A DNA stretch of 64,000 nt from Escherichia coli. Lineage in GTDB: Bacteria; Pseudomonadota; Gammaproteobacteria; Enterobacterales; Enterobacteriaceae. The first letter of the stretch is position 1, and each line of letters begins with the position of its first letter. The DNA is taken from assembly GCF_044324875.1 (NCBI RefSeq), contig NZ_CP172185.1. One strand, 5' to 3'. The position numbers were made by a program, and so were the translations under genes. The notes under the pieces were generated by a model. That model was not told the origin of the DNA. It worked only from the letters and a program-made list of their open reading frames with translations, and searched no databases. This document shows, one piece after another, positions 41,893-52,124 of this stretch.

Positions 41893-43788
<1,896 letters not shown>

Positions 43789-43816: not shown

Positions 43817-43850
43817 AGCCCGGTATACAAGTGTATACCGGGCTTTTTTG
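43817..43850. terminator. Bidirectional rho-independent terminator between parE and the TonB-dependent receptor gene
   Basis: 12-bp perfect stem AGCCCGGTATAC / GTATACCGGGCT with 4-nt loop, then TTTTTT. Confidence 0.8.
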
Positions 43851-43851
43851 A

Positions 43852-45993
43852 TCAAAATTCCATTTTCACCGTGAATTGCACTTCACGCGGATCGCCAATC
43901 TGATTCCCCAGATTATTTGTGGCGATGGAAGAGGTGTAATACGTTTTATCAAACAGTTTTTTGACGTTTAATTGCAGTGTGACCGGATACTGCAATTTCA
44001 TTTTGTATGCGGCGAAGGCATCGGCAACGAAATAGCCTGGCAGATAATAGTCAGCCCCATTGGTTGCCGAACGACGGCTTACGCCATGTCCACCACCGCC
44101 AAACGTCAGTGTGTTATTGCCTGGCATGTTATGAATGTCATAGGTCAGGAATAGCGAACCGGTATGACGAGGAACATTCGGCAATGGTTTCCCTGCATAA
44201 TCAGGATCTTCCAGAACCTTAGCATCGGTATAGCCGTAGCTGGCAATGATATTAATGTTTTCAGTTAATGCTCCCGCAAGGTCGACTTCTACCCCTCTTG
44301 AACGAACGCGGCCTGCCGTTTTGGCGATGGTTTCATCACCAATACTTTCGGTATACAACACGTTACGTTTATGGATATCAAACAGCGCAATATCTGCGGT
44401 TATACCATCGAACAGCTCGAATTTTGCCCCGACTTCGTAAGCATTAGATGATTCCGGTGGAAGATCTCCGATGTAGCTGGCAATTGACGATTGCGGCATA
44501 AATGTTTGCGAATAATTAGCAAATAAGGATACCGATGGCGTCAGTTTGTAGACTAACCCCAGTTTGGGCGTCCATTGTTCATCGCGGCTGTCAGTATTGA
44601 CATTAAAAGGACGGCCTTTACCCGCATACTGCGTGTAATACTGATAGCGGATCCCGGCGACGGCAATCCAGTTATCGGTCAGATAGAGCGCGTCCTGTGC
44701 ATACGCTGAGTAGCTCTCCTGTTTGATCGTCTGATCGCTGTCCGACGCCGAGACAGTTGTGCATTTGCTGGTATTGCCGTAAACAGGGTTGTAGATATTG
44801 AAATCTTTAGCGTTTTTACAGCGAATCATATCTGTGCGCAGAAGATCATAATATTCATATGACACCCCACCCAGAATCTCATTATAGAACCCAGCAATAT
44901 CAACATTCCCTTGCAGATCCGCACGAGTAGCATGCATACGCTGGGTAGATCCCTGAGTTGCATCAACACGCCGTGTCAGCGTTCCTGTCGTTGCATCATA
45001 CGCGGTAACACGAGCCTGATTATCGCCGTATTTATCCTGGCTGTAGCTGTAATCAAAGCGCGCTGTCCACTGGCTATTGAGATGATATTCTGCGTTGAGT
45101 TGCGCCAGATCGGACTGACCATCTGTAATATTAAACGGTTCGTCAAAACGTATTTTTCGATCAACGTTTACGGGCTGTTTCGTCGTAAGGTCGAAAATCG
45201 TTCCACGATCGAACGGAGTTTTATAATCCCGATGGGAATAGAGCATGGTTACTGTTGCATTATCACCAAACCAGGTGAGTGATGGGGCAATAAATGTACT
45301 GCGCTCTTTACCAAAGTTTCGCCAGTAATCTTCATCCTGCACTTCCCCGGTAAGGCGATACGCCAGTTGAGTGCCTTCAATGGGGCCAGTGATATCAAGT
45401 TGCCCGGTGCCACCACCGAAACTGGAGGACGTGGCTGAGACAGAACCATGGAATGTTTTTTCCGGGCGTTTGGTCACGACGTTAATCAATCCACCAGGAT
45501 CGAGAATGCCATACAGCGTGGAGGCCGGGCCTTTTAGCACTTCCACACGTTCTGTGGCGGCGTTGAAACTGCGAGGAAGTACAGTTCGCAGGCCGTTGGT
45601 CATGATGGAGCCATCCCGGTTAGCACCAAACCCACGACGTACAAAGGCGTCCTGAGTTCCGCCTAATGTATTGGTCTGTACCACGTTACTGACGTTATAA
45701 AGCGCTTCATCCAGCGTCGTTGCATTCTGATTTTCCAGAACCTGATCGCTAACCGTATTGACCACCTGCGGGATATCCAGCATCGGCATATCGGTTAATG
45801 TCGCCGTGGAGGTGCTCAGAGGTTGATAACCATCGGTTGCTTCAGTTGCGGTATTTGCATCTGCTGTAACAGTGATTGTTTCGCCATCTTTGGTCGTTAC
45901 AGAGTCTGTTGCATGAATCATCGGTGCCGCAAAAAGCAGTGAAAAGAGCGCCCGACCTTTGAGTCCTGAGAATGAAGGTGTGAACATAGCCAT
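43852..45993 (-). CDS. TonB-dependent outer-membrane receptor (siderophore-type)
   Basis: 713-aa ORF with signal peptide, plug region and a beta-barrel ending in the aromatic C-terminal residue (...FTVKMEF). Confidence 0.85.
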   Translation of the reverse strand: MAMFTPSFSGLKGRALFSLLFAAPMIHATDSVTTKDGETITVTADANTATEATDGYQPLSTSTATLTDMPMLDIPQVVNTVSDQVLENQNATTLDEALYNVSNVVQTNTLGGTQDAFVRRGFGANRDGSIMTNGLRTVLPRSFNAATERVEVLKGPASTLYGILDPGGLINVVTKRPEKTFHGSVSATSSSFGGGTGQLDITGPIEGTQLAYRLTGEVQDEDYWRNFGKERSTFIAPSLTWFGDNATVTMLYSHRDYKTPFDRGTIFDLTTKQPVNVDRKIRFDEPFNITDGQSDLAQLNAEYHLNSQWTARFDYSYSQDKYGDNQARVTAYDATTGTLTRRVDATQGSTQRMHATRADLQGNVDIAGFYNEILGGVSYEYYDLLRTDMIRCKNAKDFNIYNPVYGNTSKCTTVSASDSDQTIKQESYSAYAQDALYLTDNWIAVAGIRYQYYTQYAGKGRPFNVNTDSRDEQWTPKLGLVYKLTPSVSLFANYSQTFMPQSSIASYIGDLPPESSNAYEVGAKFELFDGITADIALFDIHKRNVLYTESIGDETIAKTAGRVRSRGVEVDLAGALTENINIIASYGYTDAKVLEDPDYAGKPLPNVPRHTGSLFLTYDIHNMPGNNTLTFGGGGHGVSRRSATNGADYYLPGYFVADAFAAYKMKLQYPVTLQLNVKKLFDKTYYTSSIATNNLGNQIGDPREVQFTVKMEF

Positions 45994-46366
45994 TTAGTCT
46001 GTTATCCCAAAAACTCGCGGATTGTCGCGAGTGAAAATTGTTTCTTATTGCTCACTAAGCACTATCCGTTTGTTATTTCGCCATCGGATATGTAATTGAG
46101 AATCATTCAATCATGCGGTAATGTAGTAGTAAATGAGAAATAACAAAAAATTGCTACATGTGTTTTTATGAGAGGTTAATGCAATTCAATTGATGGTAAT
46201 TTATTAATATTTAATGATTTTATTTTTATCTTTAAAAAAATTTCACCTGTTATTTACCTTGTTTTTGTATGGCTTTTAACTTCTTGACTACTACATTTTG
46301 TGGCGTCAAACTCTCAAAGGAGAATGAGTTTTATTTTTGTTTGTCTTTGATTAAGTTGGCGTACAC

Positions 46367-47176
46367 GTGGCACATAACGCAAAAGGGCAGGGGCTGATCC
46401 TCGACAATGTTTCTGCCGGGTATCACAAGAAAATCATTGTTGATGGTGTTTCTTTCTCCGTTCCCACAGAAAAAATGACCGTTCTGGTTGGGGCAAACGG
46501 CTGTGGAAAGTCGACGTTGCTCAGCACCATTGCACGTATCTTGCAACCTATGGGCGGCTCGATATTGCTGGATGGTAAAGCGATTCACGAGCAACCAACG
46601 AAAGCGTTATCCCGTAGACTTGGGATCTTGCCGCAGTCGCCATTATTGCCGGAGGGCTTAACCGTTTATGAACTGGTGTCGCGTGGGCGTTTTCCCTGGC
46701 AGAATTTCATTCGTCAATGGAGCGACGCCGACGAGCAGGCGGTAGAAGAGGCCCTGAAATTAACCGGTACGCAGGAGTTTGCACATTTACCTGTTGAAAA
46801 ACTTTCTGGTGGGCAGCGCCAGCGTTGCTGGATTGCGATGGTGTTGGCGCAAAAGACGCCTTATATCCTACTGGATGAACCCACAACCTGGCTTGATTTA
46901 CGTTATCAGGTTGAAATTCTTGAGTTATTACATGATTTAACGCGTCATCACGGGCGTACAGTCGTCGTGGTGTTGCATGATCTGAATTTTGCCGTCAATT
47001 ATGGTGATACGTTGATATTTTTACGCCAGGGGAAAGTGGTGCGTGTGTTGAATGAGGGGGAGCATTGCACGCCTGAGCTGGTAAAAGCTGTCTTTGACGT
47101 TGATGTTCACGCATCAATAAATCCTCTGACGGGAAAGCCGTTCTTCATGCCGTTTCGTGGTGTAGAAAAAGTATGA
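46367..47176 (+). CDS. ABC transporter ATP-binding protein (iron-siderophore / FepC-FecE type)
   Basis: 269-aa ORF with Walker A GANGCGKST, signature LSGGQRQR and Walker B ILLDEPT; the start codon is GTG in the track and is uncertain. Confidence 0.85.
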   Translation: MAHNAKGQGLILDNVSAGYHKKIIVDGVSFSVPTEKMTVLVGANGCGKSTLLSTIARILQPMGGSILLDGKAIHEQPTKALSRRLGILPQSPLLPEGLTVYELVSRGRFPWQNFIRQWSDADEQAVEEALKLTGTQEFAHLPVEKLSGGQRQRCWIAMVLAQKTPYILLDEPTTWLDLRYQVEILELLHDLTRHHGRTVVVVLHDLNFAVNYGDTLIFLRQGKVVRVLNEGEHCTPELVKAVFDVDVHASINPLTGKPFFMPFRGVEKV

Positions 47177-48156
47177 TGCGCACAGGGCTGGTTACTGTAA
47201 TTTTCCTCGCCTTACTGCTGGTGGGATGCGTGGTATATCCAGGGATTGGTGCCCGATTTATTGCACCACAAACGGTGTTGCAGGCATTTCTTCATTTTGA
47301 TCCGCAAAACTTCGATCACAACGTAATTGTAAGACTCCGTTTGCCGCGTTTAGCGGCAGCATTGCTTACCGGTGCTTCTCTTGGAGTTGCTGGTGCTTTG
47401 TTGCAGGCTGTCATTCGTAACCCATTGGGGGAGCCACATATTTTAGGCTTAAATGCCGGAGCCGCTCTTGCTGTCGTTGCTGCCAGTGCGCTTGGGCTGG
47501 CCTTTCCGGTTGGACGCCCACTGCTGGCATCTACGGGCGGCGCGTTATTGTTCCTGTTGATATTGCTGCTTTCCTCCGCAGGGCGTTCAGGGTTAACGCC
47601 AATGAAAGTTACTTTATGCGGCGTGGCGCTATCGGCGTTCGTGTCCTCAATAACGGCTGCAATCCTGATTCTTGACGAACAAACACTGCTGGCGATGCGG
47701 ACATGGCTAGCAGGTGATTTAGCGGGGCAGGATTGGGCGACGCTGGGTACGTCCGCCTGGTTTTCTCTGGGGGGATTTGTGTTAGCCCTTTACCTTGCAC
47801 CCTCCCTTAACATGTTGGCACTGGGCGATCGCATGGCGCAGGGGCTGGGCGTCTCTGTACTCCGCACGCGAACATTCACCCTGCTTGCGATCGCGTTGCT
47901 CTGTGGCGCAGCCGTATCGATTGCTGGCCCCATTGGTTTTGTCGGCCTGCTAGTACCGCAGATTGTCCGGCGTCTGGTATCAGCGGATCTGCGCGTTCTG
48001 CTCCCTCTTTCAGCTTGTGTCGGCGCGCTTTTGTTATTACTGGCAGATATTATTGCCCGGACGCTTTTCACGCCCCATGAGTTAGCGACCGGTGTCATGA
48101 CGGCGTTAGTTGGTGCGCCTGTTTTTGTCATTATGGCGACGAGGATGTTCAAATGA
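47173..48156 (+). CDS. ABC transporter permease, FecCD family
   Basis: 327-aa polytopic membrane ORF with the FecCD-family signature; ATGA overlap with the upstream ATPase stop. Confidence 0.85.
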   Translation: MMRTGLVTVIFLALLLVGCVVYPGIGARFIAPQTVLQAFLHFDPQNFDHNVIVRLRLPRLAAALLTGASLGVAGALLQAVIRNPLGEPHILGLNAGAALAVVAASALGLAFPVGRPLLASTGGALLFLLILLLSSAGRSGLTPMKVTLCGVALSAFVSSITAAILILDEQTLLAMRTWLAGDLAGQDWATLGTSAWFSLGGFVLALYLAPSLNMLALGDRMAQGLGVSVLRTRTFTLLAIALLCGAAVSIAGPIGFVGLLVPQIVRRLVSADLRVLLPLSACVGALLLLLADIIARTLFTPHELATGVMTALVGAPVFVIMATRMFK

Positions 48157-49202
48157 GTCGGATAATGAACGTCGGGCTACGCCCACTACGTGTTGGTAAG
48201 TTTTCGACACTGGTACGCCCTAAAAATCTGGTGTTGCTTGGTGGGTTGTTTCTGTTTGCGGTTGGAATACTGATATTCGGTCTGATGCAGGGTTCTTTCT
48301 CCGTCCCGGCATCGGAAGTAGGACGAGCATTGTTCTCTCCAGAAAACGTAAGCACAGACGCACGTTATATTGTGCAGGATATTCGCTTGCCGAGAGTCAT
48401 CATGGCATTGCTATGCGGGGCCATGTTAGGTATGGCGGGGGCCGCGATGCAATCCATTGCGCGTAACGGCCTTGCCGATCCTGGTTTAATCGGCGTCAAA
48501 GAAGGATGTAGCGTGGCGGTGCTGTGGCTGATTTTCCAGTTTCCAATGCTGGGAATGTTCTGGCGTCCAGTGGCTGGTCTTGCTGGTGGCTTGTTGGTGG
48601 CTTTAATCGTGATTTTTTGTGCGCGCGATATTTCCCGCCCGCGATTTGTTCTGATTGGTATTGGTGTTTCCTGGTTTTTCGCCGCCGGTATCGGTGTATT
48701 TATGACCACTGCAGATGTTCGAGATGTACAAACTGCATTGATGTGGTTATCGGGAAGCCTGCATGCAGCTAACTGGATGTTAGTCGGTATTTCAGCCTGT
48801 TGGATGTTGCCAGCCGCTCTTTTATTGCTGTTCACCGCCAGGGCGGCGGATATCGCTCTGCTTGGTCATCAGGTTGCAACCGGGTTAGGGGTGAATAGTT
48901 CTCGTCTGGCGTTGTTACGTGTCGCCGCACCCATAATCCTGACAGCCGTCTGCGTTTCGTGTGTTGGTAACATCGGTTTTGTCGGATTGATAGCACCCCA
49001 TATATCACGTTTTATTCTACGTGGCGGGCAGACGACATTACTGCTGGGGAGCGCCGTATCGGGGGCGTTGTTAGTCATCCTGGCGGATAGCATTGGTCGT
49101 TTGGCTTTTTTGCCTTTGCAACTGCCTGCCGGAATCATTATTTCATTGATTGGTGGACCATTCTTTTTGCTACTGCTCTGGCAGCGCAGGAACAGTTTTT
49201 AA
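48153..49202 (+). CDS. ABC transporter permease, FecCD family (second copy)
   Basis: 349-aa polytopic membrane ORF; ATGA overlap with the first permease. Confidence 0.85.
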   Translation: MSRIMNVGLRPLRVGKFSTLVRPKNLVLLGGLFLFAVGILIFGLMQGSFSVPASEVGRALFSPENVSTDARYIVQDIRLPRVIMALLCGAMLGMAGAAMQSIARNGLADPGLIGVKEGCSVAVLWLIFQFPMLGMFWRPVAGLAGGLLVALIVIFCARDISRPRFVLIGIGVSWFFAAGIGVFMTTADVRDVQTALMWLSGSLHAANWMLVGISACWMLPAALLLLFTARAADIALLGHQVATGLGVNSSRLALLRVAAPIILTAVCVSCVGNIGFVGLIAPHISRFILRGGQTTLLLGSAVSGALLVILADSIGRLAFLPLQLPAGIIISLIGGPFFLLLLWQRRNSF

Positions 49203-49212
49203 TGGGAGTTAT

Positions 49213-50160
49213 ATGCGTTTATTTTTTTCTCTGCTGATACTGTTGTCATTCTTTGCCCGCGCGACAGAACCTGTTCAGGTCTTTACTGATGATTTAGGGC
49301 GCAAAGTCACTGTTCCTGCTCATCCAAAGAGAATTGTCTCTTTACACGATCTTGATATCACTATTCCTCTGATTGAGCTCGGTGTACCTCCTGTCGCCAG
49401 CCACGGGCGAACCCGGCCTGACGGTAGCCATTTCATTCGATCAGGCGCGTTATTGACAGGTGTCGACTTTGATAATTCATCGATCGCTTTTATTGGCACC
49501 GCTGATATTGATATTGAAGCGATTGTGGCGGCAAAACCTGACCTGATCATCACAGAACCGACCCGTAATACGCCCATTGAACAACTGGAAAAAATTGCGC
49601 CCACGGTGAGCATTGATCATCTCAAAGGAGGCGCGCCAGAAATCTACCGCAAGCTGGCAGAACTTACAGGAACGCAGTCGCAGCTGGCGATACTTGAACG
49701 CCGCTATCAGGCACAAATCAATGCGCTGAAGGCGACGCTGGACAGCCAAAAAATAACGGTATCGGTGATTCAGGCAAATCAGGGAAAAATTAATGTGATG
49801 CATAGCTATCATTCGCTGGGGCGGGTATTACGCGATGCTGGTTTTCGCTTTCCGCCGCTGATTGAGAGCATTCCTGAAGGTGGGCGAATGGATGTGAGCG
49901 CAGAGCGTTTACCTGAACTGGATGCCGATTTTGTTTTTGCAACCTGGCGCGGTGACACCGGTGGTAAACCTCAGGATGAGCTGGCAGCAATGGAAAAAGT
50001 CATGCCGGGATGGTGTCAGTTTCTGACGGCCTGTCGTTCCGGGCGCTATGTGCTGATTTCTCGTGAAGAGGCGATTTCTAACTCCTTTGCATCTCTGGGG
50101 CTGATGGCTGCGCAGATACAATCACAAATTGCGGGACGACCTCTACCGGAGGCTAAATGA
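49213..50160 (+). CDS. Periplasmic substrate-binding protein (FhuD/FecB-like)
   Basis: 315-aa protein from the ATG at 49213 with SD GGGAG and signal peptide MRLFFSLLILLSFFARA; the track ORF start at 49150 overlaps the permease. Confidence 0.8.
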   Translation: MRLFFSLLILLSFFARATEPVQVFTDDLGRKVTVPAHPKRIVSLHDLDITIPLIELGVPPVASHGRTRPDGSHFIRSGALLTGVDFDNSSIAFIGTADIDIEAIVAAKPDLIITEPTRNTPIEQLEKIAPTVSIDHLKGGAPEIYRKLAELTGTQSQLAILERRYQAQINALKATLDSQKITVSVIQANQGKINVMHSYHSLGRVLRDAGFRFPPLIESIPEGGRMDVSAERLPELDADFVFATWRGDTGGKPQDELAAMEKVMPGWCQFLTACRSGRYVLISREEAISNSFASLGLMAAQIQSQIAGRPLPEAK

Positions 50161-51044
50161 TCCAGAAAGACAAAACGCGGGTTGATATTTATGGTGAGCG
50201 TTTTCGCACTCGCGCGAGTCAGTTAACGCCTGGGTTAAGAACTGTCGCAAGCTACATTAATGAGCATCGTGAAGTGGTACTCGAGCAAACGGCGATGGAA
50301 ATTGCGGCCACGTTGAACACTTCCGATGCCACAGTTATCAGGGCTATACAGGCTCTGGGGTTTGCCGGGCTGCGTGATCTGAAACGCACTCTGGAACAGT
50401 GGCTTGGTCCAGCCCTTAGTTCCAGCGAAAAGATGTCTACGACGGTGAGTAACTTGACGAGCGATGTTAACACCGCAATCGACTTTGTTCTTGAAGGGCA
50501 TTTGTATACTTGTAATGTCCTGTCAGAGCCTGAAAACCGCCACGCGCTTGCGCAAGCTGTAGCGTTGTTGGTGCAGGCACGGCAAGTCGCTATTTTTGGC
50601 ATTGGCGCTTCGGGTATCCTGGCGGACTATACCGCACGACTATTCAACCGCATAGGTTTGCCTGCCACGGCACTAAACCGTACGGGTATTGGCCTTGCCG
50701 AGCAACTGATCGCGCTTCAACGTGGCGATGTTCTGATCATGATGGCGCAAAAATCTGCGCACCGGGAAGGGCTGACAACGCTTCGTGAGGCGAGGCGGCT
50801 GGGGATCCCTGTTATTTTGCTGACAAACGCGCTGGATTCACGTTTTAGCAAAGACGCCAGTATCGTGATTCATGTTCCGCGCGGGGATGAAAAGGGGAAA
50901 ACGCCACTACATGGTACGGTATTGTTGTGCCTGGAAATGATTGTTTGGTCGGTGGCTTCCGCGATGCCGCAGCGTGCGGTTAAAACCATTAAGCGAATTA
51001 ACGATTTCCATCGGGGTTTGAAAACGGGAAGAAAGAATGGCTAA
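50157..51044 (+). CDS. RpiR/MurR-family transcriptional regulator (HTH_6 plus SIS domain)
   Basis: 295-aa ORF with N-terminal RpiR-type HTH and a SIS sugar-phosphate-binding fold; ATGA overlap with the binding-protein stop. Confidence 0.8.
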   Translation: MIQKDKTRVDIYGERFRTRASQLTPGLRTVASYINEHREVVLEQTAMEIAATLNTSDATVIRAIQALGFAGLRDLKRTLEQWLGPALSSSEKMSTTVSNLTSDVNTAIDFVLEGHLYTCNVLSEPENRHALAQAVALLVQARQVAIFGIGASGILADYTARLFNRIGLPATALNRTGIGLAEQLIALQRGDVLIMMAQKSAHREGLTTLREARRLGIPVILLTNALDSRFSKDASIVIHVPRGDEKGKTPLHGTVLLCLEMIVWSVASAMPQRAVKTIKRINDFHRGLKTGRKNG

Positions 51045-51052
51045 TCTGACCT

Positions 51053-51080
51053 GAGGCCGGTAGCAACACCGGCCTCTTTT
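51053..51080. terminator. Bidirectional terminator between the RpiR-family gene and ygiN
   Basis: 9-bp stem GAGGCCGGT / ACCGGCCTC then TTTT. Confidence 0.7.
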
Positions 51081-51088
51081 CAGGAATG

Positions 51089-51403
51089 TTAAATCCCCGG
51101 TTGCAGAATACGGATATTCATCTCCAGCACGTCGCCTTTTACGGCTTCGCTGTACGCCTTCATGTGCGGGGTTTGCAGATGCGCTTCAAGATGCGCGATG
51201 CTTTCCCACTGCTCAATCATCACGATAGAATCCGGTGCCATAGACTGGAAACTCACGCCAGCAGCGCAATCCACCATTGGCGCATAGCCGTGGCAACCTT
51301 CTTCTTTCAGTACGGTTGGAACGATTTTAGCAAACTGATCCAATACCGCCTGACGGTGATGTTGACCAGGACGAGTACGGATTTCTGCGATTACGGTAAG
51401 CAT
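51089..51403 (-). CDS. ygiN: Quinol monooxygenase (ABM domain)
   Basis: 104-aa ORF 30 bp downstream of mdaB on the same strand. Confidence 0.9.
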   Translation of the reverse strand: MLTVIAEIRTRPGQHHRQAVLDQFAKIVPTVLKEEGCHGYAPMVDCAAGVSFQSMAPDSIVMIEQWESIAHLEAHLQTPHMKAYSEAVKGDVLEMNIRILQPGI

Positions 51404-52015: not shown

Positions 52016-52074
52016 TTTTTAACCTCAAGGTGAGACGTTTGTCGACTATAGTACGTCACAGAGCGGTACGGTGA

Positions 52075-52118
52075 AATTAGCAAAATGTGCAAAGTCTTTT
52101 GCTAATTTAGCAAAAGTC
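52075..52118. repeat. Palindrome array built from the 9-mer TTAGCAAAA in the qseC-mdaB spacer
   Basis: AATTAGCAAAA (52075-52085), its exact complement TTTTGCTAATT (52097-52107), and a 19-bp perfect palindrome TTTTGCTAATTTAGCAAAA (52097-52115). Confidence 0.6.
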
Positions 52119-52124
52119 TTACCC

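Follow-up and report, generated by a model that had tools for sequence, protein, structure and literature searches.

Within the Escherichia coli window analysed here (the whole 64-kb stretch of contig NZ_CP172185.1), the interval 43852-51044 holds six open reading frames (ORFs), arranged as the first-pass annotation had described them: a minus-strand gene for a 713-residue TonB-dependent receptor, and five plus-strand genes that diverge from it and encode the parts of an ATP-binding cassette (ABC) importer together with a helix-turn-helix (HTH) regulator (Table 1). The block is framed by two core genes, parE, whose ORF ends at 43788, and ygiN, whose ORF ends at 51089. We conclude, with near certainty, that this interval corresponds to fit (fitA; fitB-fitC-fitD-fitE-fitR), a chromosomal locus of E. 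coli that specifies a TonB-dependent importer of ferric chelates under the control of two independent repressors. The name fit reportedly goes back to Ouyang and Isaacson in 2006.

Table 1. Features of the fit locus and its borders, in window coordinates
Feature	Position	Strand	Description
Bidirectional terminator hairpin of parE (+) and fitA (-)	43817-43844	both	12-bp stem, 7 of its pairs GC; both strands have a T-rich tail
fitA	43852-45993	-	713-residue ORF; TonB-dependent outer-membrane siderophore receptor
fitA-fitB divergent promoter/operator region	45994-46366		373 bp, 69% A+T
Fur-like block 1, ATGTAATTGAGAATCATTCAA	46090-46110		Candidate Fur box; overlaps TGnTTGAAT (minus strand), a candidate extended -10 for fitA
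Box 1, TGTAGTAGTAAA (reads TTTACTACTACA towards fitA)	46122-46133	+	Candidate FitR operator; overlaps TTTACT, the -35-like hexamer of the fitA promoter
Box 2, TTGACTACTACA on the plus strand	46284-46295	-	Candidate FitR operator; overlaps TTGACT, the -35 hexamer of the fitB promoter
Candidate fitB -10, CAAACT	46307-46312	+	17 nt after TTGACT; read from the sequence
Fur-like block 2, GAGAATGAGTTTTATTTTT	46320-46338		Second candidate Fur box, shortly after the candidate fitB -10
fitB	46367-47176	+	ABC transporter ATPase, 269 residues; GTG start
fitC	47173-48156	+	FecCD-family permease, 327 residues
fitD	48153-49202	+	FecCD-family permease, 349 residues; alternative start at 48165 in the NCBI pipeline (PGAP) annotation
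fitE	49213-50160	+	Periplasmic binding protein, 315 residues including the signal peptide
fitR	50157-51044	+	RpiR/MurR-family HTH_6 plus SIS autorepressor, 295 residues
GC-rich hairpin between fitR and ygiN	51053-51080		9-bp stem (51053-51076) plus T4

The fit system of strain i484, carried as c3771-c3775 in CFT073 and as GR22 in BEN2908, has been described as six genes for a receptor, an ATPase, two permeases, a binding protein and FitR, which combines an HTH with a sugar-isomerase domain, with a bidirectional promoter between fitA and fitB (Ouyang and Isaacson 2008; PMC2593036). We placed the ten primer pairs (20 primers) of Table 2 of that paper on the window, and all ten pairs landed where the published gene map predicts, gene by gene and in order. 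For 18 primers the match had 0-1 mismatches. Primer fitR2_F matched with 3, which reflect a K-T-R versus K-V-R difference at the N terminus of FitR, and the 15-nt fitR2_R additionally gave two 3-mismatch off-target matches elsewhere in the window. The quantitative PCR pair for fitA maps to 45173-45249 without mismatch, the pairs for fitB, fitC, fitD and fitE map to 46524-46610, 47792-47887, 48857-48916 and 49760-49831, and the fitR primers lie at 50214-50231, 50260-50347 and 51024-51041. The primers for the 'fit promoter' fragment, used in electrophoretic mobility shift assays (EMSA) and lacZ fusions, match at 46015-46036 and 46350-46373, again without mismatch.

Structural and positional comparisons led to the same assignment. 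Residues 19-315 of FitE, the mature protein, align to the whole 297-residue chain of PDB entries 3BE5 and 3BE6 (E = 2.2e-195); the depositors' label for both is only 'putative iron compound-binding protein', and 3BE6 is named Ec-FitE elsewhere (PMC10553834). A comparative study from 2026 places GR22 between ygiN and parE and gives its 'fit operon' feature a length of 7193 bp (PMC12928451), which is also the length of the interval 43852-51044. Furthermore, the RefSeq annotation of the O157:H7 block agrees with ours and sits at the matching parE-ygiN position. The published system and the window block are thus alike in their six genes, gene order, divergent promoter, parE-ygiN site and 7193-bp extent; we found no difference of substance, and the window copy is an allele.

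Taken together, the primers, the FitE structure, the position and length of GR22 and the published description identify the block as fit. This bears out the suggestion in the first-pass annotation that the block might be an iron-uptake locus already described in pathogenic E. coli, and disposes of the novelty that it otherwise proposed, since a named and characterised locus with this gene order and regulator exists. As a locus, fit is already named and partly characterised and offers no novelty.

Family searches agree with the functions first assigned to the receptor, the ATPase, the permeases, the binding protein and the HTH-SIS regulator. FitA scores 363.5 bits against the TonB-dependent siderophore receptor model TIGR01783 (cut-off 223.5), with a plug at residues 72-168 and a beta-barrel at 240-678. 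No STN/signalling domain was found in FitA by the domain search, and a receptor without an N-terminal signalling domain implies that there is no FecIR-type control. At the NCBIfam family level, FitB to FitE are an ABC ATPase, two FecCD permeases and a class III binding protein (Peripla_BP_2), and the orthologous loci carry the corresponding Pfam families PF01032, PF00005 and PF01497. The best match of FitB is FecE, at 284.6 bits and below the cut-off of 375. The composition of a FecCD/BtuCD-type (type II) ABC importer is therefore complete within one operon, with no equivalog cut-off reached. FitR contains an HTH_6 domain (PF01418, 3.6e-10, residues 14-81) and a SIS domain (PF01380, 1.3e-13, residues 138-247). 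A defence-system reading was also tried and rejected; PADLOC returned only generic P-loop matches to the ABC ATPase and none for the other five proteins.

Within the plus-strand string, ATGA overlaps occur at three of the four junctions (fitB/fitC at 47173-47176, fitC/fitD at 48153-48156 and fitE/fitR at 50157-50160). The fourth overlap proposed by the first-pass annotation did not hold: fitD ends with TAA at 49200-49202 and is followed, after a 10-nt gap with a GGGAG Shine-Dalgarno sequence, by the ATG of fitE at 49213; the fitE ORF extends up to an earlier TTG and was shortened to this ATG, which stands before the signal peptide. The GTG start of fitB aligns with ATG in other genera, and its coordinates equal the PGAP call in O157. 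The fitC/fitD overlap rests on the choice of start, as PGAP takes the ATG at 48165 in O157. In RefSeq/PGAP annotations of E. coli and Salmonella, fitD begins at this internal ATG and has 345 residues, whereas the orthologues in six other genera begin at the 4-nt-overlap start and have 350; the shorter call is probably an inconsistency of start-site annotation.

By family membership, FitA, energised by TonB, would move a ferric xenosiderophore across the outer membrane, FitE would act as the periplasmic carrier of the ferric chelate, and FitC and FitD, powered by FitB, would pass the chelate into the cytoplasm. FitA stays below the cut-offs of the receptor equivalogs PRK14050 (233 of 884 bits), FhuA (225 of 803) and FoxA (163 of 1300), of the haem (92.6 of 316.85) and B12 (40.8 of 599.7) receptors, and of FhuE, Fiu, FecA and FauA. 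Its nearest solved or curated relatives are FoxA, FhuA, FhuE, FetA and FptA (150-233 bits), and the nearest solved relatives of FitE, besides its own structure, are YfiY and FhuD (54-61 bits); with scores this weak, substrate specificity is not transferable. Neither 3BE5 nor 3BE6 is known to contain a bound siderophore, and hence these structures give no clue to the substrate.

The cassette is not accompanied by biosynthesis genes in the loci of Salmonella, Kosakonia, Raoultella, Sodalis, Serratia, Erwinia and Lelliottia, and the substrate is probably not the product of any neighbouring gene. Given these relatives and the lack of accompanying biosynthesis genes, a xenosiderophore is the best guess, probably of the hydroxamate or mixed anionic type and made by other organisms. 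The FhuBCD/FecBCDE-type importers that work with FoxA, FhuA, FhuE, FetA and FptA share with fit a 22-strand-barrel-plus-plug receptor, a class III binding protein, two FecCD permeases, an ATPase and control by Fur. What sets fit apart is its dedicated regulator, an RpiR/SIS protein and not an AraC-type protein, an extracytoplasmic function (ECF) sigma factor or a two-component system.

Another view of the block takes it as a novel, uncharacterised accessory importer whose RpiR/SIS regulator marks a non-classical substrate, for example haem, B12 or a metal chelate that is phosphorylated or sugar-derived. We regard that view as very improbable. A named locus is already in the literature, including genetic work on its regulator and a crystal structure; FitA passes the siderophore-receptor cut-off and falls far short of those for haem and B12; and fit is a direct Fur target whose FitR lacks the canonical phosphosugar loop, as detailed below. 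What the view retains is a substrate that is still unassigned (PMC9409007, PMC5907654), the SIS domain that FitR does have, a summary of fit as related to Fe2+, Co2+ and Cd2+ uptake (PMC12928451), and a relative of the cassette (L011, 7010-8946) in which two PstS-like binding-protein genes lie between the binding protein and a FitR-like regulator. The PstS-like matches (69.8 and 51.8 bits) do not reach the cut-off of 206.6 and were seen in this locus alone. The Fe2+/Co2+/Cd2+ summary is itself hard to square with a TonB receptor and a siderophore-type importer; metal-repression data from 2006 may have been misread there.

The block was found at the parE-ygiN site of 1870 of 5426 complete E. 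coli genomes (34%), with 97.4-99.2% identity; O157:H7 and ST38 are among the carriers. In keeping with the first-pass annotation, K-12 derivatives lack it, and their parE and ygiN are 47 bp apart. In Salmonella, Kosakonia, Raoultella, Sodalis, Serratia and Erwinia the six-gene unit is intact and its neighbourhoods are unrelated. In Lelliottia, the unit directly follows parE and ygiN-mdaB-qseCB lie further on; its fit proteins are 75-89% identical to those of the window, and the flanking core proteins 70-95%. Between fit and ygiN, the Lelliottia locus (L009, 10995-16333) carries genes for an AraC-type regulator, a DUF2264 protein, a LacY-like protein and a GH88 protein. Its junctions (L009, 3599-3680 and 10889-10994) hold palindromic units of the repetitive extragenic palindrome (REP) type, CCCTCTCCC...GGGAGAGGG, which are absent from the E. 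coli junctions.

The borders of the block carry two hairpins, which the first-pass annotation had called strong bidirectional terminators. This description suits the left hairpin (-21.8 and -22.3 kcal/mol, z = -6.4 and -7.1), whose arms and T-run are kept at the parE-fitA junction of Lelliottia. It does not suit the right one. By folding energy (-23.6 and -24.3 kcal/mol) this hairpin is as stable as the left, but its plus-strand tail is limited to four T and the minus strand lacks a T-run; with so short a tail it was passed over by the terminator scan.

Several observations bear on how the block came to lie at this site. As first noted, there is no mobility gene, and we found no integrase or transposase ORF in the interval. 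The alignment of the K-12 and window junctions revealed no direct repeats or target duplication, the only shared element being the left hairpin arm, and the GC content of the block (49.3%) is near that of the window (51.5%). The block therefore lacks the marks of a genomic island (integrase or transposase ORFs, junction repeats, deviating GC). Because Lelliottia shows the same junction, hairpin and level of divergence, and because mobility genes and repeats are lacking and GC is similar, the cassette appears, short of proof, to be old or ancestral at parE-ygiN and to have been lost from K-12-like lineages.

This makes the accessory insertion assumed by the first-pass annotation doubtful. In its sharper form, that explanation holds that the block is an islet recently acquired by pathogenic lineages and inserted in the parE-ygiN terminator, and we judge it rather unlikely. 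Its presence in only 34% of complete genomes and not in K-12, the reports mainly from B2, adherent-invasive E. coli (AIEC) and pathogenic isolates (PMC9409007, PMC5907654), the unrelated sites of the cassette in other genera and the variability of the parE-ygiN site itself would all fit a recent arrival; one seawater E. coli has a major facilitator superfamily (MFS) transporter gene and IS1 at this spot. Against it stand the borders, which lack mobility genes, direct repeats and att-like sites, the GC close to that of the flanks, the shared parE junction and homologous hairpin of Lelliottia with fit divergence within the range of the flanking core genes, and the carriage of the block by O157:H7 and ST38, not only by B2. 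Beyond the block, ygiZ (DUF2645) is absent between mdaB and qseC both in the window (52016-52124) and in O157:H7 SS52, and is present in the K-12 derivative NEB10-beta (L002, 4382-4714).

The regulation of fit has been studied genetically in strain i484, where Fur and FitR repress the locus independently (PMC2593036). FitR represses both promoters; its overexpression cuts reporter activity about 3-fold, and a fitR knockout lies about 1.5-fold above the wild type (211 versus 139 units) and 4.9-fold above the FitR-overexpressing strain (PMC2593036). In CFT073, fit is a direct Fur target (PMC7157518). Between them, the i484 and CFT073 studies also report that the locus is induced when iron is limiting. 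Since both proteins repress the locus, the premise of the first-pass annotation that an RpiR/SIS regulator stands here in place of Fur is wrong. FitR, encoded by the last gene of the operon, thereby represses its own synthesis.

FitR was found to bind the 'fit promoter' fragment specifically in EMSA, and in 2008 the FitR and Fur sites were described as unmapped (PMC2593036). We aligned the fitA-fitB spacer from eight genera. The alignment revealed four invariant islands in otherwise diverged DNA, and these contain the two boxes and the two Fur-like blocks of Table 1. In block 1, ATGTAATTGAGAATCATTCAA, 20 of 21 positions are invariant, the exception being 46100, where Salmonella has T instead of G; the conserved island that holds block 2, GAGAATGAGTTTTATTTTT, spans about 46317-46343. 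Boxes 1 and 2 are both invariant and together make up inverted repeat I2 (93% complementary), box 2 being box 1 in the opposite orientation. We read CAAACT as a candidate fitB -10; the aligned hexamers in other genera are CAATAT, CATGAT and TAAGAT, with A2 and T6 invariant.

Generic scans gave little guidance in this spacer. A simple promoter scan returned 6 sigma-70-like sites, compared with 10.7 in shuffled sequences, and none of the proposed promoters was among them, so that the promoter assignment rests on conservation across genera. Both Fur-like blocks match the Fur consensus at 12 of 19 positions, and in the Fur-consensus scan a 12/19 match alone is not significant in A+T-rich DNA. The motif of boxes 1 and 2, by comparison, occurs twice in the 64-kb window against an expectation of 0.24 and exactly twice in each of the eight fit loci; it is absent from the K-12 locus.

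A distant relative of the cassette adds to this picture. In L011, from a genome with 67% GC, the FitA homologue is 53% and the FitR-like protein 45% identical to those of the window, and TTTACTACTACAT followed by TTGACAATCATTCTCAAT stands upstream of the receptor gene, TTGACAATCATTCTCAAT being near-identical to block 1. An inverted TGTAGTAGT lies 124 bp further upstream, where there is no divergent gene (expected count 0.00). This inverted pair is the strongest evidence for the operator proposal. On such conservation, we infer that the inverted ACTACTACAT pair is a candidate FitR operator and that the GAGAAT-type blocks are candidate Fur boxes.

What FitR might sense is approached through its SIS domain. 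The second SIS loop of canonical phosphosugar-binding domains reads S-x-S-G-x-S/T. In FitR, the corresponding MAQKSAHRE aligns to ISQSGRSKD of the HexR-like protein 8K3B and to VSSSGSTKE of Vibrio NanR (4IVN), and in this alignment the canonical motif is missing from FitR. Within AQKSAHRE (residues 197-204), Q198, K199, S200, H202, R203 and E204 are invariant in 11 orthologues, and the first SIS loop, GIGASG, is retained and conserved. Relatives of FitR at 29-51% identity carry a non-canonical AYGxxYxE loop consensus. Because the second loop reads A-Q-K-S-A-H-R-E, the effector is probably not a canonical phosphosugar, and the conserved basic residues of this loop suggest an anionic ligand. The step from SIS domain to phosphosugar, and from there to a non-siderophore substrate, which the first-pass annotation had taken, is accordingly unsafe for FitR and loses much of its force.

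Orthologues of FitR are 69-89% identical across Enterobacterales, and the search with FitR returned about 80 representative clusters (50% identity) at E<=1e-30, relatives that score far higher than canonical RpiR proteins do, solved members reaching about 55-60 bits. No NCBIfam equivalog cut-off for MurR, HexR or AlsR is reached by FitR. It shares its HTH_6 plus SIS organisation with MurR, HexR, Vibrio NanR (4IVN) and AlsR/RpiR, and, as in that family, it represses the adjacent transport operon and binds the promoter region of its own operon. It differs from them in the low similarity (about 55-60 bits), in the non-canonical second SIS loop, in controlling an iron-chelate importer, and in a candidate operator that consists of distant, inverted, non-palindromic ACTACTACAT boxes and not of a compact palindrome.

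These features suggest a model for the divergent promoters. Fur-Fe2+ would bind the two conserved blocks, FitR would bind the inverted ACTACTACAT boxes and so cover the -35 regions of both promoters, and a cytoplasmic effector would release FitR; the resulting AND gate would open when iron is low and the effector is present. More broadly, and with less than even confidence, we tentatively propose that FitR represents a separate RpiR/SIS clade that has lost the phosphosugar motif, binds a distant inverted ACTACTACAT pair, perhaps with DNA looping, and senses the imported chelate or a breakdown product of it in place of a sugar phosphate; with Fur as the second input, a xenosiderophore importer would then be gated jointly (AND) by substrate and iron.

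The competing possibility that FitR is a true phosphosugar sensor like MurR, HexR and NanR, which would tie fit expression to carbon or cell-wall-sugar status and not to the imported substrate, seems to us improbable. Its RpiR-family HTH_6 plus SIS architecture and its retained GIGASG loop would be expected of such a sensor, the invariant K199, H202 and R203 could still bind an anionic or phosphorylated ligand, and the Serratia and Erwinia cassettes adjoin phosphotransferase system (PTS) and glycoside-hydrolase genes. However, the conserved six-gene unit contains no sugar-metabolism gene and its neighbours differ in every genus, the MAQKSAHRE loop and the AYGxxYxE consensus of the clade depart from the ISQSGRSKD and VSSSGSTKE of the solved proteins, and FitR falls below the MurR, HexR and AlsR cut-offs.

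A number of points also weigh against parts of the favoured reading of fit and its promoters. The published effects of FitR are small, 2- to 5-fold (PMC2593036). The ACTACTACAT boxes are non-palindromic and spaced 124 to 185 bp apart, which is unusual for a dimeric helix-turn-helix repressor, and in Enterobacterales they fall on -35 hexamers, whose conservation would be expected in any case. The Fur-like blocks reach only 12/19 in a spacer of 69% A+T, and the 64-kb window holds 73 sites with at least 12/19; given matches this weak and this frequent, the assignment of blocks to Fur and FitR could be swapped or shared. The closest non-orthologous relative of FitR (L010, 9001-9897; 51% identity) does not lie beside a TonB receptor or a FecCD importer but follows a resistance-nodulation-division (RND) efflux pair, and no TGTAGTAGT box was found in that locus; the link between regulator and importer is thus not universal in the clade.

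The transport side of that reading meets similar difficulties. Every NCBIfam equivalog cut-off fails, which leaves the specificity a guess; a 2022 study found no functional data on FitA (PMC9409007), and another paper calls the substrate unknown and not enterobactin (PMC5907654). As for ancestry, the unrelated neighbourhoods of the cassette in six genera mean that horizontal movement clearly occurred at some point.

The fit locus itself is therefore familiar ground: the characterisation of FitR dates from 2008, a crystal structure of FitE exists, and Fur-regulon and comparative-genomics papers include the locus. In addition, fitA is used as a marker of B2, AIEC and extraintestinal pathogenic E. 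coli (ExPEC) strains and is iron-induced in Klebsiella ST258. To this, the present analysis adds specific candidate operator boxes, Fur-like blocks and a non-canonical SIS loop as concrete site-directed targets. A signal identified through such targets could in turn reveal the substrate of the importer.

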